The notes under the pieces: generated by a model | The model's input: the letters and a program-made list of their open reading frames with translations, nothing else | Told to the model about the DNA's origin: nothing | Databases searched by the model: none | In this document: one piece after another, positions 1-28,523 of the stretch | How positions within the stretch are numbered: the stretch's first letter is position 1 | How the letters are laid out: every line of letters begins with the position of its first letter | Made by a program: the position numbers and the translations under genes | Assembly: GCF_000146505.1 (NCBI RefSeq) | Contig: NC_017448.1 | Location: forward strand, 840,001 to 872,000 | Reading direction: 5' to 3' | Source: Fibrobacter succinogenes subsp. succinogenes S85 | GTDB lineage: Bacteria; Fibrobacterota; Fibrobacteria; Fibrobacterales; Fibrobacteraceae | Length of the DNA: 32,000 bases

Positions 1-1051
1 TTGCATCATACTTTTGTTTGTAGCGCTCCGTTATCACGGGCGTGCCATCTTCGCAAGTCTTGGTCTTGGCGATGTAGCCACGGAACCAATTTTTGGAATC
101 TATTTTATAATAATAATCATCCCACAAAAGATCCGGTGAATACGGCGCAATGGCAATGGCAACCTCTTCATCTGAATCATATAAATAAACATAGAGTTCA
201 TGTGGAGTCGAATTCTTCAATGTTTTCTGTTCTCGATCCAAAAGACTTTCCAAATATGTCCGCTCCGTTTCTGACAAAACATCGTCTTTGAGTTTTTGTT
301 CAATTATTTCATACAGCTCTTTTTGGACATCTGCTAGGATGCCCGTAAATGGAAGAAAATCCTCTTGAGGACAATTACGAATCATTTCTTCTGATGAACT
401 GGAGCTTTGAGCCCCAGAACTAGAACTTATCCCATGCGCTTCATCATATTCAGCAACATTTGTATAAACTAGATTATCTTCTAACCGATATTCTCTATAA
501 GTACTATCATTGGTACACTCATAAGCGGTTTCAAAAAGAATCGGATTTGGACAAGGATTAAAAGGAACTCCATAGAGCAAACCTGAAGCGTACTCCATAG
601 CCCTACATGATTCAAGTCCAAATTCGGCCCGCTCCAATTCATTTTTAGAAATAATTCCATTGGTTTCCAAATCGCGTTTAGCCGCATCACAACTTTCGTA
701 ACAATAGCGATACGCTGGGTAAAGCGTTTGCTTGCAGCCAACAGATGGATCTCTAGCTAATACATAACCAGCAGAACTCGAACTGCTGTTAGCGCCAGAC
801 GAACTTTCAACGCCCGACGAACTCGATGCGGATTCAGAAGAAGAACTTTGCGGTGGCGTATCGGAAGAGCTTGATTCAGGCGCTACTGCAGAACTTGATA
901 ATTCGCTAGAGCTACTTTCATTTGCATCAGACGATGAATCAGGATTTGCTGATGGCGACATCGGAAATTGCGGATTTGAATCCGAACAACTCGCCCAGAA
1001 AAGCGAAGCAACAGTCAAACTAAACAAGCGAATAAATTTATGGATAGTCAT
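1..1051 (-). CDS. Lipoprotein with Ser-rich linker, paralog A1 of 1980..3053; 3' end cut by window edge
   Basis: Not in the ORF track because there is no stop inside the window. Hand translation of the minus strand from the ATG at 1051..1049 stays open down to position 2. It reads MTIHKFIRLFSLTVASLFWASCSDSNPQFPMSPSANPDSSSDANESSSSELSS...RGYIAKTKTCEDGTPVITERYKQKYDA. Signal peptide plus Cys, Ser-rich linker and C-terminal motifs parallel ORF 1980..3086. Confidence 0.6.
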   Translation of the reverse strand, partial: MTIHKFIRLFSLTVASLFWASCSDSNPQFPMSPSANPDSSSDANESSSSELSSSAVAPESSSSDTPPQSSSSESASSSSGVESSSGANSSSSSAGYVLARDPSVGCKQTLYPAYRYCYESCDAAKRDLETNGIISKNELERAEFGLESCRAMEYASGLLYGVPFNPCPNPILFETAYECTNDSTYREYRLEDNLVYTNVAEYDEAHGISSSSGAQSSSSSEEMIRNCPQEDFLPFTGILADVQKELYEIIEQKLKDDVLSETERTYLESLLDREQKTLKNSTPHELYVYLYDSDEEVAIAIAPYSPDLLWDDYYYKIDSKNWFRGYIAKTKTCEDGTPVITERYKQKYDA

Positions 1052-1164
1052 AGCAAATTCTTCTTTAAATCCTCGCAAAATCAATGGCGATAAATTCGGT
1101 CACCCTCAACGCGAACGCCTTTTGCCGTAAGACCACTTGCAGATTGTCCGTTGACTAAATACGG
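873..1164 (-). repeat. High-identity junction block, copy 1 (B1 3' end + spacer + A1 5' end)
   Basis: Aligns colinearly with 2875..3166 at a constant offset of 2002 bp. Perfect runs of about 58, 49 and 55 bp seen by eye; flanking coding sequence is much more diverged. Confidence 0.85.
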
Positions 1165-1875
1165 TTTTGCAACTGGCTTAACTTTATTCCTATTACGAAC
1201 TGGTTTTACAATAGGTGAAGGCGGCAAAACACCTTTTCCAACAGGCAATTCGCCGCTATATGACGGAATTTTGCTAAACGTGGGCGTACCGTCATCTTGG
1301 AAAATACATTGGTGAACATAATAAGCCGGGAATCCTTGCTTTGTCACCCTATAATTCCAATCATACACCGTATCGTACACAGTTATATATTGGCACAACG
1401 CGTAATACGAAGAGTCCTTTTTATACACAAAATAATTCGTATCATTCGCCGTACTATTTTTTAATGAGTGCTTATATGATTCCGTCAAGGAATGCCAACT
1501 ACCGTCCCGTTCCTCATAAAAAGCCAAAGAATCATTCAAATCGAGAGTAGTCCCTTCTTTTAAAGCATCCTTTGAATTGACACTCCAAAAATTTTGGTCA
1601 TATTCAAAAAAGGCGACGTTTTTCATTGTAAAATTACAAGCCCCATATAAAATGCCACAAACGCAAGCAGCATCCCACAGCCAAACACTATAGCCTTTGC
1701 CATTTTCAAAAACAACGCTGTCTTTAGAAAATCCCCAAACAGGATTATCAATATAATCCGAGGAACTCAAATTCACTATAAAAGACTGTTCCCATTCTTT
1801 TGCTTGAGCCGTACCAAGTCCCATCACAAAAGCAACAGCCAGTCCAGACAAGAATAAACTTTTTATGTTTTTCAT
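1081..1875 (-). CDS. Secreted hypothetical protein, paralog B1 of 3083..3865
   Basis: ORF 1081..1899, trimmed to the third Met (MKNIKSLFLSGLAVAFVMGLGTAQA) with AGGAG about 9 nt upstream. N-terminal signal peptide. Shares NDTNYFVYKKDSSYYALCQY, QCIFQDDGTPTFSKIP and an identical 28-aa C-terminus with B2. No family recognised. Confidence 0.7.
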   Translation of the reverse strand: MKNIKSLFLSGLAVAFVMGLGTAQAKEWEQSFIVNLSSSDYIDNPVWGFSKDSVVFENGKGYSVWLWDAACVCGILYGACNFTMKNVAFFEYDQNFWSVNSKDALKEGTTLDLNDSLAFYEERDGSWHSLTESYKHSLKNSTANDTNYFVYKKDSSYYALCQYITVYDTVYDWNYRVTKQGFPAYYVHQCIFQDDGTPTFSKIPSYSGELPVGKGVLPPSPIVKPVRNRNKVKPVAKPYLVNGQSASGLTAKGVRVEGDRIYRH

Positions 1876-1979
1876 TCCCATTCTCTCCTTTTTTAACAAT
1901 ATACAATTTGCTCAAATAAATTCATACGCAAGATGTTTTTATTTTACAAATTGAATTTCCAGGAACATGAAACAAAATT

Positions 1980-3053
1980 TTATTCAGCCTTTTTTAATTC
2001 TTTCTCAATAAGTTCAAGGCATTCCGCAAGAATCGCATCGTATTTTTCCTGATAGATTTCAGTAGTTGCAGGAGCGCCGTCCGCACAAGTTTTTGTTTTG
2101 GCGATATAGCCATCAAACCAGTAACCAGAATACATTCTCAACCGAGAATCATTCCCTTCCCCACTATCTTCAGTATAGGGAGCTAAGCGTCCTTTCAACG
2201 TTTTGTTTTCACGATCCAAAAGACTCCCTAAATATTTTTGTTCGGCTTCGGGTCTTGCAATATCTTGTATGAACTTTTCAGAAACAATCTCATACAATTT
2301 TTTCTGCACATCAGCAAGGACATCCGTAAATAAGGCAAAATCTCCCTGCGGGCAATTTTTTACAATAACATCTGGCGCGACGCCATGAGCCTCATCATAT
2401 TCTTTTTGGCTCGTATAGAATTTTTTCCCATCTAATTTAACATCGCTATAAGAGCTGTCATTAGAACATTTCATGTCCACAAACATACGCATTGGGCAGC
2501 CCCCATAAGAGATGCCATAAAGCGGTTCTTCCCGAAACAAGTCCTTAACAGCACCGCAAGACTGGAGAGCACTTTCCCATCTTGAGATAATTTTTTCGGA
2601 CAACGTTGTATCCGAACCCAAATACTTTTTATAATCATCACAAGAAATATCTTTTGTACTACTGCAAGCCGTCATTCCCATATAAGAATTAGCATAACAA
2701 GTCACAGAGGGATCTCTAGCCAAAACATAGCTCGCAGCACTAGATGAGCTTCTAGCTATTGAAGAACTACTCAAAGAAGGCGTTTCGCTAGATGAGCTCA
2801 TCTCAGACACTGTAGACGAGGAACTAGGAGGTGGCGGAGCATCCGAACTTGATTCAGAAACAATCGCAGAACTCGATTCAGGCGCTACCGCAGAACTTGA
2901 TAATTCGCTAGAGCTACTTTCATTTGCATCAGACGATGAATCAGGATTCGTCAAGGACTGTGCCGGAAATTGAGGATTCGAATCCGAGCAACTTGCCCAA
3001 AAAAACGATGCGACAGTCAAGCTAAATAGGCGGAAAAACTTATGGATAGTCAT
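1980..3053 (-). CDS. Lipoprotein with Ser-rich linker, paralog A2
   Basis: ORF 1980..3086 begins at a TTG; the ATG at 3053 gives MTIHKFFRLFSLTVASFFWASC (signal peptide plus lipobox-like Cys). An ~90-aa Ser-rich low-complexity linker is followed by a Cys-containing globular region. No family recognised. Confidence 0.7.
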   Translation of the reverse strand: MTIHKFFRLFSLTVASFFWASCSDSNPQFPAQSLTNPDSSSDANESSSSELSSSAVAPESSSAIVSESSSDAPPPPSSSSTVSEMSSSSETPSLSSSSIARSSSSAASYVLARDPSVTCYANSYMGMTACSSTKDISCDDYKKYLGSDTTLSEKIISRWESALQSCGAVKDLFREEPLYGISYGGCPMRMFVDMKCSNDSSYSDVKLDGKKFYTSQKEYDEAHGVAPDVIVKNCPQGDFALFTDVLADVQKKLYEIVSEKFIQDIARPEAEQKYLGSLLDRENKTLKGRLAPYTEDSGEGNDSRLRMYSGYWFDGYIAKTKTCADGAPATTEIYQEKYDAILAECLELIEKELKKAE

Positions 3054-3166
3054 AGCAAATTCTTCTTTAAATCCTCGCAAAATCAATGACGATAGATTCG
3101 GTCGCCTTCAACGCGAACGCCTTTTGCCGTAAGACCACTTGCAGATTGTCCGTTGACTAAATAAGG
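2875..3166 (-). repeat. High-identity junction block, copy 2 (B2 3' end + spacer + A2 5' end)
   Basis: See 873..1164. Confidence 0.85.
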
Positions 3167-3865
3167 CTTGCGGGGTGCATTAACACGAGTCGGCTTACGA
3201 ACCGGATTTGCAAAACCCGTAGGACCTTCAATCTTACGCGCTTCAGGCAACACTCCGCTAAATGCAGGAATCTTGCTAAACGTAGGCGTTCCATCGTCCT
3301 GGAAAATACACTGATGCGCAAAAAATCCAGGAATATAATCTGTTTCACCCCACCTATAGACCACAGTATCGTAAACCGTTACATACTGGCACAAAGCATA
3401 GTACGAAGAATCTTTTTTATATACAAAATAATTTGTGTCGTTTTCAGCATCTAGCTTGTTGGAATAAACGTATGTTTCTAACAATATATTACGAGATTCA
3501 TCTTTAAAGGCTGATGAATCATTCAGATTAAGTGCATTTCCCGCTTTCAGCGCATCCTTTGAAACGACACTCCAAAAATTTTGTTCATAATCATAAAAAC
3601 CATAATGGTCAAGGTACGCGTAGCAATTTCCATGATCTAGATCTATTCCACAAACGCAAGTCATGTTTACATTCCAAGTAGAATAGCCCTTACCAGGCTT
3701 ATTTTCAATGCTATCTTTGGAAAATCCCCATTTGGAACTCTGCCAAGAATCACTGTTAAGGTCAGCTACGTAGGACTGTACCCATTCCTTAGCCTGAGAA
3801 ATACCAAGCCCAAACAAAAGAGCCAAAGCAAAGCTCGACTTTAAAATATTTTTTTGGTTATCCAT
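3083..3865 (-). CDS. Secreted hypothetical protein, paralog B2
   Basis: 260-aa ORF with signal peptide MDNQKNILKSSFALALLFGLGISQA. Clear paralogy to 1081..1875, including the identical tail KPYLVNGQSASGLTAKGVRVEGDRIYRH. Confidence 0.7.
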   Translation of the reverse strand: MDNQKNILKSSFALALLFGLGISQAKEWVQSYVADLNSDSWQSSKWGFSKDSIENKPGKGYSTWNVNMTCVCGIDLDHGNCYAYLDHYGFYDYEQNFWSVVSKDALKAGNALNLNDSSAFKDESRNILLETYVYSNKLDAENDTNYFVYKKDSSYYALCQYVTVYDTVVYRWGETDYIPGFFAHQCIFQDDGTPTFSKIPAFSGVLPEARKIEGPTGFANPVRKPTRVNAPRKPYLVNGQSASGLTAKGVRVEGDRIYRH

Positions 3866-3934
3866 ACCAACTCCTTCTTCTTAACAACAATATATAATTT
3901 GTACCTTAACAACGTACAAGTTATTGATGTAAAT

Positions 3935-3964
3935 AAAAAAGAACTGTCACTTTCGCAACAGTTC
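3935..3964 (-). terminator. Rho-independent terminator of 4013..4774
   Basis: Minus strand reads GAACUGU-N10-ACAGUUC followed by UUUUUU. Confidence 0.55.
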
Positions 3965-3979
3965 ACTCTAAAAAAAACT

Positions 3980-4008
3980 GGATCCTTCGCCTTCGCTCAG
4001 GATGACGT
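3980..4008 (-). repeat. Hairpin repeat ending ATGACGT (FAQDD/SLRMT type)
   Basis: GGATCCTTCGCCTTCGCTCAGGATGACGT: ATCCT/AGGAT stem followed by GACGT. Lies between the stop of 4013..4774 and its terminator. Confidence 0.6.
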
Positions 4009-4898: not shown

Positions 4899-4961
4899 GC
4901 AAGACAAGCCGCTCTTTCGTCTCTCGTCTGTAGCGAGCGACGCGAGCGTTCTCTCGTCTAA

Positions 4962-9193: not shown

Positions 9194-9275
9194 TTGACGC
9201 CTACGGCGTCCGCGGCTGCACTCGGTCATAGAAAAATGCAAGCATTTTTCTGCGACTCTCGTTTTGCACGCTTTT
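9194..9275 (-). repeat. 82-bp double-hairpin intergenic element, copy R1
   Basis: The reverse complement aligns over 82 bp with 11381..11462 (about 68/82 identical by eye). Hairpins are AGAAAAATGC-TT-GCATTTTTCT and GACGCC-GTA-GGCGTC. Confidence 0.85.
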
Positions 9276-9505: not shown

Positions 9506-9606
9506 TTTTTCAAGCTACAGTTCTTGATTTACAAGCCTTTAATTTCGCCATATTTTTCACTCGTCTTTCGTCTCTAGTCTCTCGTCTATACTATATTTAG
9601 GTTACT

Positions 9607-10564: not shown

Positions 10565-10639
10565 TTGGTAGAACTTAGTTGGCAGAACTTAGATATAATC
10601 GCTAGGTTCTAAGATCTAAGTTCTAAAATCTAAGTTCTA
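10565..10639 (+). repeat. Inverted array of a 9-bp word (2x AGAACTTAG, 3x CTAAGTTCT) between dapA and the next gene
   Basis: TTGGTAGAACTTAG TTGGCAGAACTTAG atataatcg CTAGGTTCTAAG ATCTAAGTTCTAA AATCTAAGTTCTA. The arms can pair as 9 bp + internal loop + 9 bp. Confidence 0.8.
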
Positions 10640-10657: not shown

Positions 10658-11356
10658 ATGGCTAAGAATGAAAAATCCGTTACCGACTTGGTCTGCGAAC
10701 ACATCAAGAAGCAGAAGCTTCTCCCGATTCCGGTGCAGACTCTGAACGAAGAAGCCGAAGCTACTCGCTACTTCGGCGGCGACCTCAAGGAATTCTTGGC
10801 AGCAGCCAAGACTCTCGGCGCAAAGGGAATCTTCGTTGAAACACTTTATCTGGAAGACGACGAATTCTACTACGACAGCGGCATCGATGACGAAGAATAC
10901 CTCGCCATGAACGGCGCTGACGGAAGCTGCACTTGCGGCTGCGGTGACAACTGCGACTGCAAGAAGGGCGACAAGAAGAAGTCCAAGAAGGCTGACGACG
11001 ACAAGGTCGACGGCGTGTTCCTTGAACCGGAAGACCTCGACGGTCTTGACCTATCCCTCCTCCGTCCTGAAATTGCAAAGTTCCTCGACCGCGTTGGCGA
11101 ATGCTGTGGCGTGCGCTTGACGGTTCCGGGTGTGGACCACCTCGAAGTCGAAATCTTCGCTGACTGGTACGACGAATTCGCTGAACTCGTGGACGAAGCT
11201 TCTGAAATCATCGAAGAAGATCCGAACGGCGCTCTCGAACAGGTCGAAGCCATGTTCAAGGAAGCAGAAAAGGCTGCTAAGGAAGAAGACAAGAGCGTGA
11301 AGAAGATTTCGGCACATCCCCCGAAAAAGACCGCAAGCGCTAAAGCTAAGAAGTAA
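10658..11356 (+). CDS. Acidic hypothetical protein with internal Cys cluster and Lys-rich tail
   Basis: 232-aa ORF with GGAG about 8 nt upstream of the ATG. Very acidic, with the insert-like CTCGCGDNCDCKKGDKKKSKK and the tail PPKKTASAKAKK. No family recognised. Confidence 0.6.
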   Translation: MAKNEKSVTDLVCEHIKKQKLLPIPVQTLNEEAEATRYFGGDLKEFLAAAKTLGAKGIFVETLYLEDDEFYYDSGIDDEEYLAMNGADGSCTCGCGDNCDCKKGDKKKSKKADDDKVDGVFLEPEDLDGLDLSLLRPEIAKFLDRVGECCGVRLTVPGVDHLEVEIFADWYDEFAELVDEASEIIEEDPNGALEQVEAMFKEAEKAAKEEDKSVKKISAHPPKKTASAKAKK

Positions 11357-11380: not shown

Positions 11381-11462
11381 AAAAGCGTGCAAAACGAGCG
11401 TCGCGAAATTATGCTTGCATAATTTCATGACCGAGTAAAGCCGCGGACGCTGAAAGCGTCAA
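11381..11462 (+). repeat. 82-bp double-hairpin intergenic element, copy R2
   Basis: AAAAGCGTGCAAAACGAGCGTCGC-GAAATTATGC-TT-GCATAATTTC-ATGACCGAGT...GACGC-TGAAA-GCGTC. Stem differences from R1 are compensatory. Confidence 0.85.
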
Positions 11463-13739: not shown

Positions 13740-16451
13740 TTATTCTTCGGTTTCCGTCGGGCCGATTTCCTGCTTTTCAGCATCGTCCTTGACAACGGAA
13801 TCGTCATCGACTTCAACGCCCTTAACCTTGTCGAAAGTTTCCTTGGCATCGGCGCTATCTTGTTCGATATCTTCGACGCTCGGGAGTGCAGTTGCATCCT
13901 TCACGACATCGCCATCGCGCAGCGTGATTGCCTTGACGCCCTGGGCATTGCGGCCCGTGAGGCGGATATCGGCAGCCTTGATGCGGATGACCTGACCGTC
14001 CTTACTTGTGATGATCAAATCGTAATCGTCAGCAACGCTTTCAACGAACACGGCGGCACCGATCTTGTCTGTAACGTTCAAGTTGCGGACACCCTTGCTA
14101 CCACGGCGGGTCACACGGTAAGAACCCGGTTCAGAACGCTTGCCATAACCCTTTTCGGTGATGGTCAAGATCTTGTTGCCGGCCTTGAGCCACAAGAGCG
14201 AAATGACTTCGTCGCCTTCGGCGAGCGTAATGCCCTTCACGCCGTGCGTGCCACGACCCATAGCGCGGAAGCAGCTAATCGGGAACGTGACGGCCTGACC
14301 GTTCTTGGTTGCAATCATCAAAAGATCCTTCGGAATCGGGCGGTTGGCGAAGTCTTCGGCATCGCCAGATTCAGATTCTTCGGCAATAGCGGCTTCGGCA
14401 GCCTGAGCTTCCGCGGCGTTTTCAACGGCTTCTGCGGAATCGTCATCAGAGGCGTTCTTGCTCGCTTCGTATTCTTCAGCAGACATGCCCACGAGCTGGA
14501 CCTTGACCAATTCATCGTCTTCATCGAGGCTAATGGCATTGACGCCAGCCTTGCGCGGACGGCTAAAGAGCGTGAGGTCCATCTTGTTGATGATCCCCTT
14601 CTTGGTTGCAAACACGAGGCAGAAGTATCCACCGAACTTGCGCACCGGCACAATCGCCTGCACCTTTTCGCCTTCCGTGAGAGCGACAAAGTTCACAATC
14701 GGGCGGCCCTTACCATTGCGGGCGCCTTCCGGCAAGCGGTAGACCTTCGTCCAGTAGACACGGCCCTTGTTCGTAAACACGAGCAAGTAGCTGTGCGTGC
14801 TAGCCGTGAAGATCTGCTCCACGTTATCTTCGTCCTTGAGGCCTGCACCGATGATGCCCTTGCCACCGCGGTTCTGAGCCTTGAACGTATCAATCGGGAG
14901 GCGACGGATGTAGCCTTCCTTACTGAGCGTGATGACCTGTTCTTCTTCGGCAATGAGGTCTTCGTCATCGCTATCATCAATAGCTTCGCCAATCGTCGTG
15001 CGGCGTTCATCGCCATACTTGTCAACGACAGCGTCGAGCTTCTGGAGCATGATGGCAACGCGGCGTTCGCGCTTTTCCAAGATGTCCTTCAAGTCAGCAA
15101 CAGTTGCAATGAGTTCGTTGTATTCGGCTTCCAACTTTTCGATATTCAAGCCGACCAACTGGGCAAGGCGCATGTCAACGATGGCCTGAGACTGGATTTC
15201 GTCGAGCGAGAAGCGATCCTGCAAGCTCTGCTTTGCTATTTCGGTCGTCTTGCTCTGGCGAATAATCTTCACGACTTCGTCGATGTTCTGCGTTGCAATA
15301 CGCAAACCTTCAATGATGTGGAGGCGAGCTGCAGCCTTCTTCAAGTCGAACTGCGTTGCACGCGTAATCACATCGAGGCGGTGGTCAATGTAGACCTGCA
15401 AAAGATCCTTGAGCGTAAGGAGCTTCGGGAGGTTATTGACGAGTGCCAAGTTGTAAATGCTAAACGTCGTCTGGAGCTGCGTGTACTTGAACAAGTTATT
15501 CAAGACAACTTCACCAACAGCATCACGGCGGAGTTCAATCACAATGCGGATGTCACGGCTCGATTCATCGCGGATGTCCGTAATGCCATCGATGCGTTTG
15601 TCGCGGACGAGGTCTGCAATCTTCTTGCAGAGTTCGGCCTTGTTCACCATGTATGGAATTTCGGTGACGATGATGCGCGGTTTGCCCTTTGCATCCGTTT
15701 CAATTTCGGTACGGGCGCGCACACGCACACGGCCATGACCCGTGAGGTAAGCTTCGCGAATGCCAGAACGGCCACAGACGATAGCACCAGTCGGGAAGTC
15801 CGGGCCCTTCACATATTCCATGAGGTCTTCGCCAGTCAAGTCTGGATTTTCAGCCAAAGCATGGATAGCGGCACCGACTTCGCGCAAGTTGTGCGGAGCC
15901 ATATTCGTCGCCATACCTACTGCAATACCCGATGTTCCGTTCACAATCATGTTCGGGAGCGCAGACGGGAGCACCAGCGGTTCTTCGAGCGATTCATCGT
16001 AGTTCGGGCCCATGTCGACCGTCTCTTTTTCGAGATCTTCGAGCATAAGGGCGCCAAGGTTGTTCATCTTCGCTTCGGTATAACGCATGGCAGCCGGGCT
16101 GTCACCATCAATAGAACCGAAGTTACCCTGACCAAACACCAGCGGATAGCGCAACGAGAAATCCTGCGCCATACGGGCAAGAGTATCGTAAACAGCAACG
16201 TCACCATGCGGGTGGTACTTACCGATAACATCACCCACGATACGGGCGGACTTGACCGTTCCCTTATTCGGAACCACGCCCAACTTGTGCATACTGTACA
16301 TCACGCGGCGGTGCACGGGCTTAAAGCCATCGCGCGCATCCGGCAATGCACGAGCGACAATAACGCTCATCGAGTAGCGAAGATAGCAGTCCTGCATGTC
16401 TTGTTCGACAAGACTCTTGAACTGCGATCCAGGTACCATTTCTTCAGACAT
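13740..16451 (-). CDS. gyrA: DNA gyrase subunit A
   Basis: 903 aa. Contains RALPDARDGFKPVHRRV, GKYHPHGD, the active-site region AAMRYTE, C-terminal beta-pinwheel repeats and an acidic tail. Confidence 0.98.
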   Translation of the reverse strand: MSEEMVPGSQFKSLVEQDMQDCYLRYSMSVIVARALPDARDGFKPVHRRVMYSMHKLGVVPNKGTVKSARIVGDVIGKYHPHGDVAVYDTLARMAQDFSLRYPLVFGQGNFGSIDGDSPAAMRYTEAKMNNLGALMLEDLEKETVDMGPNYDESLEEPLVLPSALPNMIVNGTSGIAVGMATNMAPHNLREVGAAIHALAENPDLTGEDLMEYVKGPDFPTGAIVCGRSGIREAYLTGHGRVRVRARTEIETDAKGKPRIIVTEIPYMVNKAELCKKIADLVRDKRIDGITDIRDESSRDIRIVIELRRDAVGEVVLNNLFKYTQLQTTFSIYNLALVNNLPKLLTLKDLLQVYIDHRLDVITRATQFDLKKAAARLHIIEGLRIATQNIDEVVKIIRQSKTTEIAKQSLQDRFSLDEIQSQAIVDMRLAQLVGLNIEKLEAEYNELIATVADLKDILEKRERRVAIMLQKLDAVVDKYGDERRTTIGEAIDDSDDEDLIAEEEQVITLSKEGYIRRLPIDTFKAQNRGGKGIIGAGLKDEDNVEQIFTASTHSYLLVFTNKGRVYWTKVYRLPEGARNGKGRPIVNFVALTEGEKVQAIVPVRKFGGYFCLVFATKKGIINKMDLTLFSRPRKAGVNAISLDEDDELVKVQLVGMSAEEYEASKNASDDDSAEAVENAAEAQAAEAAIAEESESGDAEDFANRPIPKDLLMIATKNGQAVTFPISCFRAMGRGTHGVKGITLAEGDEVISLLWLKAGNKILTITEKGYGKRSEPGSYRVTRRGSKGVRNLNVTDKIGAAVFVESVADDYDLIITSKDGQVIRIKAADIRLTGRNAQGVKAITLRDGDVVKDATALPSVEDIEQDSADAKETFDKVKGVEVDDDSVVKDDAEKQEIGPTETEE

Positions 16452-16465
16452 TAGTTAACCTCAAA

Positions 16466-17287
16466 TTAGTGGGAAGTAAAATCATCACTTCCCAGCATTT
16501 CACTTATCACTTCCAAACTTTCTTCATCGGTCTGGTCTATGCGGTGCGGTGTGATTGTCGCATAGCCCTTATCTAGCAAGTTGTCGTCCGAACCCTCAGG
16601 AGCCATCGACCACAGCTTTTCGCCATCCAAAAACCACAAGCCATCCTTGTGATCGTAGTGGTCGGTAAACATACCACGGTCCATCGTGCAAGCCTTAAAT
16701 CCAAGGAATTCATCTTCCTTGATTTTCGGGAAATTCACATTCCAGAAGACGCCCTTGGAAATTTTCTTGAACAGGTTCTCAGAAACAATCTTGCGTGCAA
16801 AATCAATCGCCACCTGCAACAGGTTGCCTTTCAATCCACGGAGAGAAAGCGCCACCGCAGGCACGCCCCAAAGGGCCGCTTCGCGAGCTCCGGCAACCGT
16901 CCCCGAATATAGCGACGACACACCGGAATTTTCGCCCACATTAACTCCCGAAAAACATACATCAAAGCCTTCGGGAACAATCGTGTTATCATTAAGGCCG
17001 TAATTGGCAAAATGCCCCACGGCAAACTTCACGCAGTCCGCAGGAGTGCCCGAGACCGAATAAACCTCGTACGGCAACTTCGCTTTCCCCGGGACAGATT
17101 CAACATGCTGGACGCGCAACCCGCGACGAATCGTAAAGGCGTGACCGACACCACTCTGTTCGTCTTCAGGTGCAAAAACATAGACATCGGAAACCTCACT
17201 CAAAGCAAGAGCGAGAGCATGCAGATTAACACTACCAACGCCATCGTCGTTAGTGATCAATACCCTAGTTTTCCGTAATTGTTCCAT
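16466..17287 (-). CDS. surE: 5'/3'-nucleotidase SurE
   Basis: 273 aa. Contains VLITNDDGVGS, GTPADCV, SGVNVGEN and YSGTVAGAREA. Lies 14 bp upstream of gyrA on the same strand. Confidence 0.9.
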   Translation of the reverse strand: MEQLRKTRVLITNDDGVGSVNLHALALALSEVSDVYVFAPEDEQSGVGHAFTIRRGLRVQHVESVPGKAKLPYEVYSVSGTPADCVKFAVGHFANYGLNDNTIVPEGFDVCFSGVNVGENSGVSSLYSGTVAGAREAALWGVPAVALSLRGLKGNLLQVAIDFARKIVSENLFKKISKGVFWNVNFPKIKEDEFLGFKACTMDRGMFTDHYDHKDGLWFLDGEKLWSMAPEGSDDNLLDKGYATITPHRIDQTDEESLEVISEMLGSDDFTSH

Positions 17288-22998: not shown

Positions 22999-23028
22999 AA
23001 AAACCGCAGCTTCAAGCTGCGGCTTTTA
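22999..23028. terminator. Bidirectional terminator between convergent genes 20919..22979 and 23073..24278
   Basis: AAAAAA-CCGCAGCTT-C-AAGCTGCGG-CTTTT, with A-run and T-run on either side. Confidence 0.85.
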
Positions 23029-23030
23029 TT

Positions 23031-23055
23031 CTAGAAACTCTAAACTAGTAACTAG
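23031..23055 (+). repeat. CTAGTAAC-type word repeat, intergenic copy
   Basis: CTAGAAACTCTAAACTAGTAACTAG matches 25248..25272 (CTAGTAACTCAAAACTAGTAACTAG) at 23 of 25 positions. Confidence 0.8.
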
Positions 23056-24880: not shown

Positions 24881-26395
24881 ATGAGTGACGCTCTCGAAAA
24901 ACGCATCAAGAAACACATCATCGGAAAGCCACACCGCTTTTTAGCCGTGTCTCCGCTTGGTTTTGAACAAACTCTTTCGAGAGAATTAGAAATCATTTTA
25001 GGCGAAAGCGCAACGGAACAGCCACACGCCACTGGGGACGGCAAAGTCGAATTTACCACAAAACTCACTGAAGCGTGGAAAGTCGTCGCCGTAAGCCGCA
25101 CCGCCAACCGCGTGCTCATGGAAATCGCAAATTTCAAGGCCGAGAACTTCCGCGATCTCGAAAAGAAAGCCTCCGAAATCCCGTGGGAACTGTATTTTGA
25201 CAAGAAAACGGGCAACGCCCTACAGACGAGAGACGAGAGTATTATTCCTAGTAACTCAAAACTAGTAACTAGTAACTTACCACACATTCACGTTACTTGC
25301 AAGCATTCGCGACTGTACCATAGTGACGCCATCGCCGAAAGGTTATACAAAATAATAGAAGGGGTAAGCCTCCCCCTCGCTTCTGCCGACACGGCATCCG
25401 CTACCCCCTCTGCGGGGACACCCCGCAACGCCCCGGCGCAAAACGAGAATCGCAGCATTCAACAAAATCTCTACGTCAATTTCTTAGATGACCGTTGCAC
25501 CATTTGGCTAGACCTCGCCGGTGAAGAACTCTACAAACGCGGTTTTGAACGATTCGTGAACGACGCCCCGCTCAAAGAAACCATCGCCTCCGCGATGATC
25601 TTCGAAGCTTTCTATACAGCGTCCCTAACCACTAACCACCAACCACAAACCACTCTTATTGATCCCATGTCCGGCAGCGGCACATTCAGTCTTGAAGCCG
25701 CCTGCATTGCAAACAAAATCATTCCTGGCACCTGTCGCGATTTTGCACTCAAGCACCAGCCCGCTTTCAAAGAAGCCACGTGGAATTTTTTGATTAGACA
25801 AGAGACGAGAGACGACAAATGCGTAGGACGAGTGTCGCGACCATGCTTGCATGAGCATGACCGAGTCCAGCATTTGGGATTAGAGCGAAGCGATAATCCA
25901 AAGACGAACAGTGAAACAGCGGCAATCGCGAAAATCATCACAAGCGACATTTCCGAACGCGCGGTAAGCATCATCAAGCACAACATAGAATGTTGCCCGC
26001 TCGCAAGTATTTCTCCAGCCCCAATCGCACCGCAACAAAAAGATTTCTTCAGCTACACCGCAAAAGAAATTGTAGACGCCTGCGGTGACACCTCGCCCAT
26101 TCTCGTGCTAAACCCACCCTACGGCAAGCGCCTTGACTTTGACGCACCCAAGCTTTACACGCAAATAGGCAAAAAGCTAACGGAACTCGCCCGCGACTTA
26201 CACAATTTTGGCAAAACGCTCACAGTCGCCATCCTCGCCCCGAAAGACGACACCCGCAATGGAGCCAAGTACACCTGCACCGCAAACCTTTTGCGCGAAT
26301 GTGCCGCCTTGTCGCCAGAGCAATCCCCAACCGCGAAAGTCATCCAAACAAGCCACGGCGGCTTTAGCCTCAACGCCATCTTTGCAACAATCTAG
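24881..26395 (+). CDS. THUMP-domain class I SAM-dependent RNA methyltransferase (RlmL N-half / UPF0020-like) carrying in-frame repeat insertions
   Basis: The ORF track starts at the TTG at 24872; the ATG at 24881 gives MSDALEKR. Motif I is LIDPMSGSGTFSLEAA and motif IV is LVLNPPYGKRL. The upstream region resembles a THUMP module. About 500 aa, against roughly 380-400 aa that I recall for this family. Confidence 0.75.
   Translation: MSDALEKRIKKHIIGKPHRFLAVSPLGFEQTLSRELEIILGESATEQPHATGDGKVEFTTKLTEAWKVVAVSRTANRVLMEIANFKAENFRDLEKKASEIPWELYFDKKTGNALQTRDESIIPSNSKLVTSNLPHIHVTCKHSRLYHSDAIAERLYKIIEGVSLPLASADTASATPSAGTPRNAPAQNENRSIQQNLYVNFLDDRCTIWLDLAGEELYKRGFERFVNDAPLKETIASAMIFEAFYTASLTTNHQPQTTLIDPMSGSGTFSLEAACIANKIIPGTCRDFALKHQPAFKEATWNFLIRQETRDDKCVGRVSRPCLHEHDRVQHLGLERSDNPKTNSETAAIAKIITSDISERAVSIIKHNIECCPLASISPAPIAPQQKDFFSYTAKEIVDACGDTSPILVLNPPYGKRLDFDAPKLYTQIGKKLTELARDLHNFGKTLTVAILAPKDDTRNGAKYTCTANLLRECAALSPEQSPTAKVIQTSHGGFSLNAIFATI
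25224..25279 (+). repeat. Word-repeat block inside the methyltransferase ORF (GACGAGAG x2 + CTAGTAAC x3)
   Basis: AGACGAGAGACGAGAG resembles the reverse complement of the intergenic 4911..4931. CTAGTAACTCAAAACTAGTAACTAGTAACTTA matches the intergenic 23031..23055. Confidence 0.75.
25821..25871 (+). repeat. Degenerate copy R3 of the double-hairpin element, inside the methyltransferase ORF
   Basis: Colinear blocks are shared with R2: ACGAG(T/C)GTCGCGA, ATGCTTGCAT (hairpin core) and CATGACCGAGT. Translated in frame as ...GRVSRPCLHEHDRVQ... Confidence 0.65.
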
Positions 26396-26501: not shown

Positions 26502-28358
26502 ATGCCGAAACTTCGTTCGCTCAAGACTATGGAAGGCCGCGAAATGGCCGGAGCACGCGCCCTGTGGCACGCAACTGGAACTAAGGTGGAAGACTTTGGT
26601 AAGCCCGTCATTTGCGTGGTGAACAGCTACACCCAGTTTGTACCGGGTCATGTCCACCTCAAGGATGTCGGCCAGGTTGTCGCTCGTGCGATCGAAGCTG
26701 CCGGCGGTGTCGCTAAGGAAATGAACACCATCGCAGTCGATGACGGTATCGCCATGGGCCACGACGGCATGCTCTACAGCTTGCCGAGCCGCGACCTCAT
26801 TGCCGACTCCACCGAATACATGGCAAACGCTCACCGCGCAGACGCACTCGTCTGCATTTCTAACTGCGACAAGGTGACTCCGGGTATGCTCATGGCTGCC
26901 ATGCGCCTCAACATTCCGGCAATCTTCGTTTCTGGCGGCCCGATGGAAGCTGGCCACGTCACGACGAAGGACGGTAAGGACCGCGCTCTCGACTTGATCG
27001 ACGCCATGATCGATTCTGCAGACAACACCATCAGCGATGAAGAAGTTGCCGACATCGAAGCAAACGCTTGCCCGACTTGCGGTTCCTGCTCCGGCATGTT
27101 CACCGCAAACTCAATGAACTCCCTTACCGAAGCCCTCGGCCTTAGCTTGCCTGGCAACGGCACCATCGTTGCAACGCATGCCGAACGTAAGAAACTCTTC
27201 GAAGCTGCCGGTAAGCGCATCGTGGAACTCTGCCACCAGTATTACGATTTGAACGACGAAAGCATCCTCCCGCGCAGCATCGCCACGAAGGACGCCTTCG
27301 AAAACGCAATGCGCCTCGACATCGCCATGGGCGGTTCTTCTAACACAGTGCTTCACTTGCTCGCCGTCGCTCAGGAAGCTGGCGTGGACTTCACCATGAA
27401 GGACATTGACCGCCTCTCCCGCAACACGCCGTGCATCTGCAAGGTCGCTCCGACCGTCCACAACATCCACGTTGAAAACGTGAACCGCGCAGGCGGTATC
27501 ATGGGCATCATCGGTGAACTCGACCGCATGGGCCTCATCCACAAGAGCGCAAAGACTGTTCACGCCGCCACGATGGGCGACGCTCTCGAAGCAAACGACC
27601 TCAAGCGTAATCCGACTGCCGAAGCCAAGCAGCGCTACCTCGCAGGTCCGGGCCGCAAGTACAACATCGAAGCATTCTCTCAGAACTTCATGTACCCGGA
27701 TCACGACCTCGACCGTGCCAACGGTGCTATCCGCGATGGCGAACACGCTTACACCAAGGACGGCGGCCTCGCTGTTCTTTACGGTAACCTCGCTATCGAC
27801 GGCTGCATCGTGAAGACCGCAGGCGTTGACGAATCCATCTGGAAGTTCACCGGTCCGGCAATCGTATTCGAAAGCCAGGAAGAAGCCGTGAACGGCATTC
27901 TCGGCAACAAGGTGAAGGCTGGCGACGTCGTCGTCATCCGTTACGAAGGCCCGAAGGGTGGTCCTGGCATGCAGGAAATGCTCTACCCGACCTCTCACCT
28001 CAAGAGCCGTCACCTCGGCAAGTCCTGCGCCCTCCTCACCGACGGTCGCTTCTCCGGCGGTACGAGCGGTCTCTCCATTGGCCACGCTTCTCCGGAAGCC
28101 GCCAACAAGGGTAACATCGGCCTCGTGCACACAGGCGACGTCATCGAAATCGATATCCCAAACCGCACCATCAACGTGGAACTCACCGACGAAGAACTCG
28201 CCGCCCGCCGCAAGGAAATGGAATCCCGTGGCGCCAAGGCATGGAAGCCGGAAAACCGCGACCGCGTCGTGTCCAAGGCACTCCAGGCATACGCTGCCAT
28301 GGCTTCTTCTGCAGACAAGGGCGCTGTCAGAGACTTGTCTCTAATTGGAGTTAAATAA
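26502..28358 (+). CDS. ilvD: Dihydroxy-acid dehydratase
   Basis: 618 aa. Contains [67 protein letters not shown] and SADKGAVRD. Close to E. coli IlvD throughout. Confidence 0.98.
28320..28358 (+). repeat. ilvD terminal 12 codons + stop, copy 1 (the one in frame and used)
   Basis: GGC GCT GTC AGA GAC TTG TCT CTA ATT GGA GTT AAA TAA. Confidence 0.9.
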
Positions 28359-28463
28359 GCAAATCCCTGTGAGCCGTAGGCGACTCGTATTAACGAGTCG
28401 TCGGAGGCGAGAGGCGGCGAGGTATCGCAGTGTAAATAGCAATCGAACCGCCGGTCGTCACAG

Positions 28464-28502
28464 GGTGCTGTCAGAGACTTGTCTCTGATTGGTGTGAAGT
28501 AA
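28464..28502 (+). repeat. ilvD terminal 12 codons + stop, copy 2 (downstream, 144 bp away, same frame)
   Basis: GGT GCT GTC AGA GAC TTG TCT CTG ATT GGT GTG AAG TAA. 34 of 39 positions are identical to copy 1, and all 5 differences are synonymous third positions. Confidence 0.9.
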
Positions 28503-28523
28503 TTAAAGGAATTCCCCGCATAC

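Follow-up and report, generated by a model that had tools for sequence, protein, structure and literature searches.

A THUMP RNA methyltransferase gene of Fibrobacter with probable in-frame insertions of dispersed intergenic repeats

Main

Here, we report that the loops of an RNA methyltransferase of Fibrobacter succinogenes subsp. succinogenes S85 have, with a probability that we put at roughly four in five, repeatedly taken up dispersed and normally intergenic Fibrobacter repeats, of which only in-frame, stop-free versions were kept. The gene lies in a stretch of 32,000 nucleotides (nt) of contig NC_017448.1 (positions 840,001 to 872,000 of the forward strand), called the window throughout. 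At window positions 24881-26395, an open reading frame (ORF) for an RlmL/YpsC-type THUMP RNA methyltransferase holds four segments, a to d, which an earlier note, made by a model from the letters alone, had derived from the intergenic repeat repertoire. This origin held for a, c, d and most of b (b1) and is no more than possible for the last 24 nt of b (b2, 25440-25463). The strongest single result, and the decisive one, is a block of about 96 nt that is 99% identical at two different sites of the gene, hot spot 5 in S85 and hot spot 2 in its relative UWB11, the hot spots being the few positions at which orthologues differ in length. Below, L and P numbers are our own handles for Fibrobacter loci and orthologues.

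Results

The host gene and its segments are as follows, all on the forward strand of the window.

24881..26395, +, host gene: RNA methyltransferase with an N-terminal ferredoxin-like domain (NFLD), a THUMP domain and a class I S-adenosylmethionine (SAM) domain, RlmL/YpsC-like (from Pfam, AlphaFold2 and Foldseek, and identity to the S85 protein)
25208..25285, +, segment a, hot spot 2, amino acids (aa) 110-135: three-module mosaic with non-coding matches
25361..25439, +, segment b1, hot spot 3: a GC-rich element translated GVSLPLASADTASATPSAGTPRNAP, in which lie the hairpins GGGG-TAAGCCT-CCCC and GCGGGG-ACA-CCCCGC
25440..25463, +, segment b2: 24-nt indel CAAAACGAGAATCGCAGCATTCAA (QNENRSIQ) with a CAAAA direct repeat on its flanks (from the alignment of close relatives)
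25620..25654, +, segment c, hot spot 4: repeated CTAACCAC/AACCAC words, translated SLTTNHQPQTT, within the loop that directly precedes motif I
25796..25808 (or 25799-25812), +, tract of GACGAGA heptamers lying 5' of element d, recognized by sequence; this tract flanks many coding and non-coding element copies
25809..25904, +, segment d, hot spot 5: 96-nt double hairpin, translated DDKCVGRVSRPCLHEHDRVQHLGLERSDNPKT

The ORF is intact and its 504-aa product is 100% identical to the 'putative RNA methylase' of F. succinogenes S85. Pfam places the product among the UPF0020/RMKL-like methyltransferases (PF01170, 70.2 bits against a cut-off of 22.3) and finds the RlmL N-terminal ferredoxin-like domain (RlmL_1st, PF22020, 32.2 against 27), with no match to the Pfam THUMP model. 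Motif I (DPMSGSGT, of the form D/E-P-x-x-G-S-G-T) and motif IV (NPPYG, of the form N/D-P-P-Y), which the earlier note had read as intact, are both present and invariant in 89 orthologues. An AlphaFold2 model built with these 89 diverse Fibrobacter orthologues has a mean predicted local distance difference test (pLDDT) of 74.9 and a predicted TM-score (pTM) of 0.77, and its best Foldseek matches are 3LDG, 3LDU, RlmKL 3V97 and 3K0B (E=1e-20 to 1e-23), with target-normalised TM-scores of 0.74-0.79 against solved proteins of 377-380 residues. Model and matches together give a predicted three-domain NFLD-THUMP-Rossmann fold which, like motifs I and IV, is that of RlmL (the N-terminal half of E. coli RlmKL, 3V97) and of the YpsC-like proteins 3LDG, 3LDU and 3K0B. 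These are also the nearest solved structures by sequence, with 384-393 aa for 3K0B, 3LDU and 3LDG and, in the case of E. coli RlmKL, its N-terminal half. On the NCBIfam RlmKL equivalog PRK11783 the protein scores 141 bits, below the cut-off of 466; we therefore name it an RlmL/YpsC-type THUMP methyltransferase and leave RlmL orthology and the substrate unassigned. From its sequence features, a functional enzyme of this type is the best explanation of the gene. The protein had been judged about 100 aa too long for its family, and this agrees with an excess of ~95 aa over the Fibrobacter core of ~407 alignment columns and of 110-125 aa over 3LDG, 3LDU and 3K0B, owing to the inserts (solved relatives span 377-393 aa).

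Orthologues, each together with its 10-kb flanks, were taken from the genomes of 65 Fibrobacter species and from four further strains. The 62 usable orthologues range from 411 to 608 aa, and a second protein search widens this range to 394-660 aa. All share the ~407 well-conserved columns, with many invariant residues including the catalytic motifs, and nearly all length variation is confined to five main hot spots (S85 residues 47, 110-131, 166-193, 249-253 and 311-344), of which hot spots 2-5 correspond to segments a, b, c and d. The gene is an outlier in this respect: the methyltransferase has 10-15 gapped aa in every 100, versus 0-1.5 in most neighbouring genes of the same genomes, including genes of similar substitution divergence such as surE.

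The S85-type cassettes are patchy across species (a in 11/64, b1 in 31/64, c in 12/64, d in 4/64), and segments of the a-d types turn up at different hot spots in different lineages. Segment a is missing or replaced in most orthologues; b1 is absent from L067/P0118, P0117 and L054; b2 is found in S85, L001 and L068 and is absent from L069, UWB11 and L067. The words of segment c (TNHQP) occupy hot spot 4 in S85 and hot spot 2 in L068, P0010 and P0106. Combinations are also reshuffled: P0033 and P0045 have the S85 cassette at hot spot 2 together with other cassettes at hot spots 4 and 5. A profile built from the conserved columns is colinear with 3LDU, 3K0B, 3LDG and E. coli RlmL, in all of which segments a-d are absent. 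At site d, from the conserved W to the SD of strand 2, RlmL has ~26 residues and S85 has 54, as expected from the far shorter variable segment that the earlier note had placed there. That note had also named the sharing of the segments by distant taxa as a sign of ancestral sequence, and the Firmicutes and E. coli structures align without them. Given the patchy distribution and these alignments, the sequence comparison supports reading segments a-d as insertions rather than ancestral sequence.

The frame, described as open through all segments, is indeed open in S85 and through all inserts in 62 of the 65 species. The methyltransferase frame changes in the remaining three, L057 and L061 (hot spot 5) and L064 (hot spot 3), lie exactly at hot spots; all three are metagenome-assembled genomes (MAGs), and the changes are either real disruptive events or assembly errors at repeats. 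They are what speaks for a decaying pseudogene, or for an annotation or assembly artefact whose open frame is accidental. We hold this to be scarcely conceivable: the frame is kept nearly everywhere, core columns and catalytic motifs are well conserved, the identical protein occurs on 21 contigs including the S85 chromosome, and the exceptions are MAGs, in which repeats provoke assembly errors. For the S85 gene itself, conservation refutes a pseudogene.

In the AlphaFold2 model, segments a (residues 110-130), b (163-191) and d (307-346) are coil of pLDDT <50 that links well-predicted core elements, and the loop joining helix 232-248 to strand 257-261, directly ahead of motif I, is made longer by segment c. 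The structure prediction that had been suggested as a check thus puts the segments between core secondary-structure elements of the predicted fold, which fits a, b and d being tolerated surface loops, as proposed for the Rickettsia palindromic elements (RPEs).

Another hairpin family was seen at hot spots of strains without the S85 cassettes. It has the form GTCAT(C/T)C(T/C)GAGCGAAGCGA..GGAT, fills hot spots 1, 2 and 5 (L040, L046, L051, L058, L063 and P0032-P0119) and is translated VILSKAKDPV, VTLNEVKGPV or CHSEERSDEES. Its stems vary compensatorily around a GCGAAGC loop, and 10 of the 12 exact occurrences of GAGCGAAGCGA in 1.1 Mb lie inside the methyltransferase gene.

The intergenic parts of the window that bear on the segments are listed here.

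23026..23055, +, intergenic CTAGTAAC-word module, matching the right part of segment a (window repeat comparison)
4913..4949, -, intergenic module TAGACGAGAGA-ACGCTCGCGTCGCTCGCTAC-AGACGAGAGACGAAAG, matching the left part of segment a (window repeat comparison)
11381..11462, +, the '82-nt element' in an intergenic copy, with a stop codon on one side and an intrinsic terminator on the other
9194..9275, -, the other intergenic occurrence of this 82-nt element (window repeats, covariance model and fold)

Segment a consists of a small hairpin GGGC-AAC-GCCC with CTAC, a GACGAGA heptamer tract (25224-25240) and CTAGTAAC words (25248-25276); GACGAGAG stands at 25225 and 25232 and CTAGTAAC at 25248, 25262 and 25269, in line with the words read there before. 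The reported agreement of 25248-25272 with intergenic 23031-23055 was reproduced at 23/25, and 25220-25239 agrees with intergenic 4914-4933 (-) at 19/20; 100 dinucleotide-preserving shuffles of the window gave 0 matches for either. Non-coding matches of segment a in the window lie at 23026-23055, 4913-4949 and 9552-9587, and non-coding DNA of L116 and L097 contains 'ACGGGCTTCGCCCTACAGACGAGAGACGA', which matches its left part.

For b1, non-coding copies were found in L053 (6610-6645, 97% over 36 nt, E=3e-12), in L103 (3756-3778) and in L052, L042 and L034 (88% over 41 nt). The hairpin TGCGGGG-ACA-CCCCGCA is followed, as had been stated, by GCGCAAAACGAGAATCGCAG, which agrees at 18/20 with the 5' part of the 82-nt element; the hairpin fold of b is weak (z=-1.3). 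The indel b2 has no non-coding copy in the Fibrobacter DNA searched and no covariance-model match, and its sequence makes it a possible piece of the 82-nt element's 5' arm. The CTAACCAC/AACCAC words of segment c, correctly placed just before motif I, occupy 25625-25654 and have 23 non-coding matches, for example in L010 (904-928, 100% over 25 nt, E=5e-8) and L038 (6748-6782, 91% over 35 nt). Fold prediction gave no hairpin structure for segments a and c, which are unstructured word repeats.

With the exception of b2, every segment thus has non-coding copies, either within the window or elsewhere in Fibrobacter DNA, as the blastn comparison proposed earlier was to establish; an absence of such copies, which the earlier note had named as refuting its reading, was not what we saw. 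When 220 insert DNAs from the orthologues were compared by blastn with 1.14 Mb of Fibrobacter DNA, 163 matches outside the gene were non-coding versus 108 in ORFs, and non-coding sequence makes up only ~9% of that DNA. Module order is alike in coding inserts and intergenic arrays, a GACGAGA tract being followed by a hairpin or word module, which argues that the inserts are pieces of a mosaic repeat system organised like the bacterial interspersed mosaic elements (BIMEs) of enterobacteria.

Segment d is predicted to fold into two hairpins. The first, long and irregular (25816-25876), has an outer stem, an internal loop of CGAG/CGAG, a stem of GTCG/TGAC and a loop of CUUG; the other (25877-25899) has a GCGAAGC loop. 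The same double-hairpin fold is predicted for d (-33 kcal/mol, z=-4.7) and for the two intergenic copies of the window (-29.5 and -31.4 kcal/mol, z=-3.3 and -3.4). In the nucleotide alignment of close relatives, d is 99% identical over 95 nt to UWB11 (L066 10336-10430) at hot spot 2. Both blocks are read in the same frame, DDKCVGR[A/V]SRPCLHEHDRVQHLGLERSDNPKT, and the whole proteins are only ~71% identical. Against non-coding copies in L077, L187, L131, L144 and L129, d is 79-87% identical over 80-95 nt (E down to 9e-23); the covariance model R1 detects it at E=1e-18, the d copy being itself in the seed alignment of that model. The GACGAGA tract and the relation to the double-hairpin element, both claimed in the earlier note, are therefore real, and its word 'degenerate' understated the case: with blastn at E=9e-23 and z=-4.7, d is a full family member.

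These data bear on the view that the segments are fast-evolving low-complexity linkers that slipped in place and resemble intergenic DNA by coincidence or composition. The words of a and c, without predicted structure, form arrays of a kind that can expand locally, and hot-spot lengths vary almost continuously among orthologues. We nevertheless think it very unlikely, given 0 matches in 100 shuffles, non-coding blastn matches at E 5e-8 to 3e-12 (c and b) and 9e-23 (d), an element 99% identical at two different sites and a module order kept between coding inserts and intergenic arrays. For b and d, in-place slippage is largely refuted by the non-coding copies and by the identity at two sites.

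A scan of public metagenomes with the pattern ATGCTTGCATN{2,9}ATGACCGAG returned at least 120 loci of the double-hairpin family. Its core, GCGAG-N-GTCGC...ATGACCGAG, reads R-GCGAG-N-GTCGC, a variable stem, an ATG-CUUG-CAT loop, the complementary stem and ATGAC-CGAG-Y. The outer stem that encloses the core differs entirely between subfamilies yet remains complementary (CAAATGC/GCATTTG, AAACCC/GGGTTT, ACATGC/GCATGT), and the core is followed by a second, simple hairpin, often with a GCGAAGC or GNA-type loop. Native pairs of 5' and 3' outer arms reach -7.6 kcal/mol versus -4.5 kcal/mol for permuted pairs (41 distinct outer arms, p=4e-16), and the inner variable stem behaves alike. This comparison was used because stem lengths differ between subfamilies, which limited RNAalifold on a MAFFT alignment to the core pairs. 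Other Fibrobacter species have relatives with the same core and a different inner hairpin. The 82-nt element also occurs in head-to-tail tandem arrays with a period of ~82 nt (L047 14154-14314, L171 2080-2240).

Among the exact-pattern copies listed, 85 of 128 are non-coding, and most others overlap only short, probably spurious ORFs. Genuine in-frame copies were found in a glycosyltransferase family 4 (GT4) gene (L086), MnmE (L093), TruB (L105) and an elongation factor G (EF-G)-family GTPase (L154), host identities that Pfam confirmed. All four are in the reading frame of the methyltransferase copies, so that one frame is used across five host genes (..R(E/V)S(Q/R)PCLH..DR.QHLGLE.. or the equivalent peptide of a related subfamily). 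Of the two remaining sense frames of the d-type consensus, one meets a stop codon after no more than ~45 nt (ATA TGA). When the 40-aa insert peptide was searched against 1.84 billion protein representatives, only 4 hits resulted, with one real-looking host, the query being too short and clustering hiding insert-bearing alleles. The four additional hosts also carry further repeat-derived peptides, namely ETKDER/RRETRDER (from GACGAGA tracts), SRHPE..EGSS, CHPGAEGDRIQ and VIARNDSDEAIQ, which points to several more in-frame repeat families in Fibrobacter.

From 56 diverse copies we built a covariance model, which gave 22 significant hits in Fibrobacter genome loci totalling 1.2 Mb. The methyltransferase orthologue, ~8% of that DNA, holds 11-12 of them: in sense at hot spot 1 (L013), hot spot 2 (L066, L006, L009, L015) and hot spot 5 (S85, L001, L068, L069), and in antisense, again in frame, at hot spot 3 (L023, L025). 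No hit fell inside any other long ORF of these loci. By this count, a single gene acquired the element independently five times or more. Candidate reasons for the preference are the tolerance of its loops, or GACGAGA tracts that act as recombination or target sites.

The hairpins might instead be functional cis-acting RNA, such as mRNA stabilisers or processing or translational pause sites, selected in the mRNA of RNA-modification genes. The strong conserved fold with its CUUG loop and tandem G-A motif would suit such a role, the intergenic copy at 11381 is transcribed, given its place between stop codon and terminator, and three of the four additional hosts act in translation (two tRNA-modification enzymes and the EF-G-family GTPase). 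However, the non-coding copies among those listed (85) show no orientation bias relative to the gene on their 5' side (32 on the same strand, 31 opposite), which argues for a DNA-level repeat over a cis-acting mRNA element. Within the methyltransferase gene the element sits at four sites and in both orientations, it is patchy among close relatives, and Rfam 15 gave no match at gathering threshold in the window and, at E<=10, no relevant hit to the ORF or to the intergenic copies. We consider a cis-acting role unlikely.

Other repeats in the window

The last ~15 codons of surE had been proposed as a further repeat-derived stretch. This is true of about the last four codons (FTSH*) only; EESLEVISEML is ancestral and conserved. 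The tail DQTDEESLEVISEML is conserved in all orthologues and only the last codons differ, a deletion in S85 having fused the ORF to an intergenic ACTTCCTAC word repeat. The surE-gyrA spacer (window 16430-16480), compared in L001, L003, L007, L009, L013, L015, L066 and L068, contains different 8-nt words per species, CTAACCAC, ACTTCCTAC or GGTATTAGG, and therefore word repeats turn over at fixed intergenic sites too. The words CTAACCAC and ACTTCCTAC are also cassettes of methyltransferase hot spot 4 or 2 in S85 and L068.

Downstream of the methyltransferase, the final ~40 nt of ilvD, stop codon included, recur 144 nt further on at 85% identity (28318-28363 and 28462-28507). Between the copies lie ~100 nt with a hairpin GACTCGT-ATTA-ACGAGTC, and the second one is followed by a terminator; the arrangement resembles an insertion into the 3' end of ilvD by which the C-terminus was regenerated. 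The ilvD stop codon of L047 is directly followed by tandem 82-nt elements. Elsewhere in the window, positions 1-4000 contain two tandem paralogous genes ~2 kb apart with blocks of 70-96% identity (direct repeats D1-D10), and an inverted array of TAGAACTTAG words, an intergenic repeat of the word type, lies at 10569-10639 just upstream of the gene starting at 10658.

Discussion

We propose that the methyltransferase acquired its inserts from two kinds of module. [quoted passage not shown] Insertions would land in, or survive only in, about five positions between secondary-structure elements and would be translated as disordered loop peptides; selection would remove out-of-frame or stop-containing events, and cassettes could later be replaced, lost or exchanged between lineages. 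We infer active transposition beyond recombination, an enzyme that moves the element, and peptides that are neutral passengers.

Several points weigh against this proposal. It offers no account of why the methyltransferase gene, of all genes, is a hot spot. Among 26 distinct d-type flanks there is no consistent target-site duplication, and the sole inverted repeat is the hairpin stem. A tblastn search of ~2 Mb of DNA with two queries, IS608 TnpA and the E. coli REP-associated tyrosine transposase (RAYT), gave no hit, which is a weak test. Within S85 the search covered this window, and copy numbers for whole genomes are extrapolations. Low pLDDT would suit surface loops and is no proof of them, and the translation of the inserts is read from the open frame and the intact motifs. 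Finally, recombination or gene conversion between dispersed copies could give the same pattern without transposition.

This last point is a serious alternative, or complement, to transposition. In it, homologous or microhomology recombination or gene conversion operates between copies and between strains, with GACGAGA tracts as anchors. It would account for the reshuffled cassettes of P0033 and P0045, for the GACGAGA tracts that flank many inserts on one or both sides, and for flanks that lack a target-site duplication among d-type copies and, around the 24-nt b2 indel, consist of a CAAAA direct repeat. Yet it leaves unexplained the origin of the element and its spread to more than 100 genomic contexts with a conserved core and covarying stems, features that are typical of elements recognised by a dedicated enzyme. 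We regard recombination without transposition as possible; the two are not mutually exclusive.

Within our proposal of repeated repeat uptake, a further idea, which we consider doubtful, is that the double-hairpin core (CGAG/CGAG tandem G-A, GUCG/UGAC stem in which a C-A mismatch is fixed, CUUG loop, GCGAAGC mini-hairpin) is the site of a dedicated enzyme or RNA-binding protein. The element would then be a new class of structured mobile element in Fibrobacterota, and its preference for translation genes (THUMP methyltransferase, MnmE, TruB and EF-G-like) would not be accidental and would reflect targeting or regulation at the mRNA level.

A full-text search of the searchable literature found no description of these repeats in Fibrobacter. 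In genomes and MAGs of Fibrobacter, they inflate and break up both predicted genes and alignments. The case, in a cultivable bacterium, would also offer a tractable system, because hundreds of natural alleles of one enzyme differ in their loop cassettes; with these one could ask how random peptide insertions are tolerated, whether they seed new loops or functions and how small hairpin repeats move.

Among known repeat systems, enterobacterial REP/BIME and REP-RAYT systems share with the Fibrobacter repeats the mosaic intergenic arrays of hairpin modules and linkers, the conserved bases and the covarying stems. However, REPs are essentially extragenic whereas the Fibrobacter modules are tolerated in coding sequence, and neither a RAYT gene nor a GTAG-headed REP consensus was demonstrated here. 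MITEs and palindrome-associated transposable elements (PATEs), which are non-autonomous insertion sequence (IS) derivatives and include types with IS200/IS605-type hairpin ends, are likewise small, numerous and non-coding with two subterminal hairpins, and the recurrent d-type flanks, usually (A/G)ACGA on the left and CAA(A) at the right end, add to the resemblance. The terminal inverted repeats and target-site duplication of MITEs were not seen in the 26 distinct d-type flanks, and the mark of PATEs, a cognate Y1 transposase with a fixed target tetranucleotide, was not found, the search for the enzyme covering ~2 Mb with the TnpA and RAYT queries. Enterobacterial repetitive intergenic consensus (ERIC), BOX, Correia and cyanobacterial MITE insertions in genes likewise give occasional in-frame fusions of repeat peptides (PMC10969869). 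Those cases are sporadic single events, whereas Fibrobacter has multiple families and hot spots in one conserved gene throughout the genus.

The closest parallel is the RPEs, and the earlier note was apt in drawing it. RPEs in coding genes were reportedly described by Ogata et al. in Science in 2000 (290:347) and in Genome Res in 2002 (12:808). A 2024 review singles out RPEs for their unusually high frequency of in-frame insertions (PMC10969869). Like the Fibrobacter element, RPEs are short dispersed palindromic repeats (about 100-150 bp) that occur in intergenic DNA and in frame in unrelated housekeeping genes, with the same reading frame per family in every host and at predicted positions that spare the fold. 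The corresponding properties in Fibrobacter are a dispersed multi-copy family with intergenic and intragenic copies, in frame and in one frame in five hosts that are unrelated conserved genes; a palindromic structure is clear for d (z=-4.7, covarying stems), weak for b and absent from a and c. The host of RPEs is an obligate intracellular alphaproteobacterium, whereas Fibrobacter is a free-living rumen bacterium; these are different phyla and we therefore assume an independent origin. Coding copies make up close to half of RPEs versus ~5% of the Fibrobacter hairpin family outside the methyltransferase and, unlike with RPEs, one Fibrobacter gene was hit at at least five sites with turnover of cassettes, in mosaics that include unstructured word repeats. 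In-frame 'selfish' repeats in genes have been treated as nearly a peculiarity of Rickettsia. Fibrobacter would add a second, independent and richly sampled case, which would show that the phenomenon is more general.

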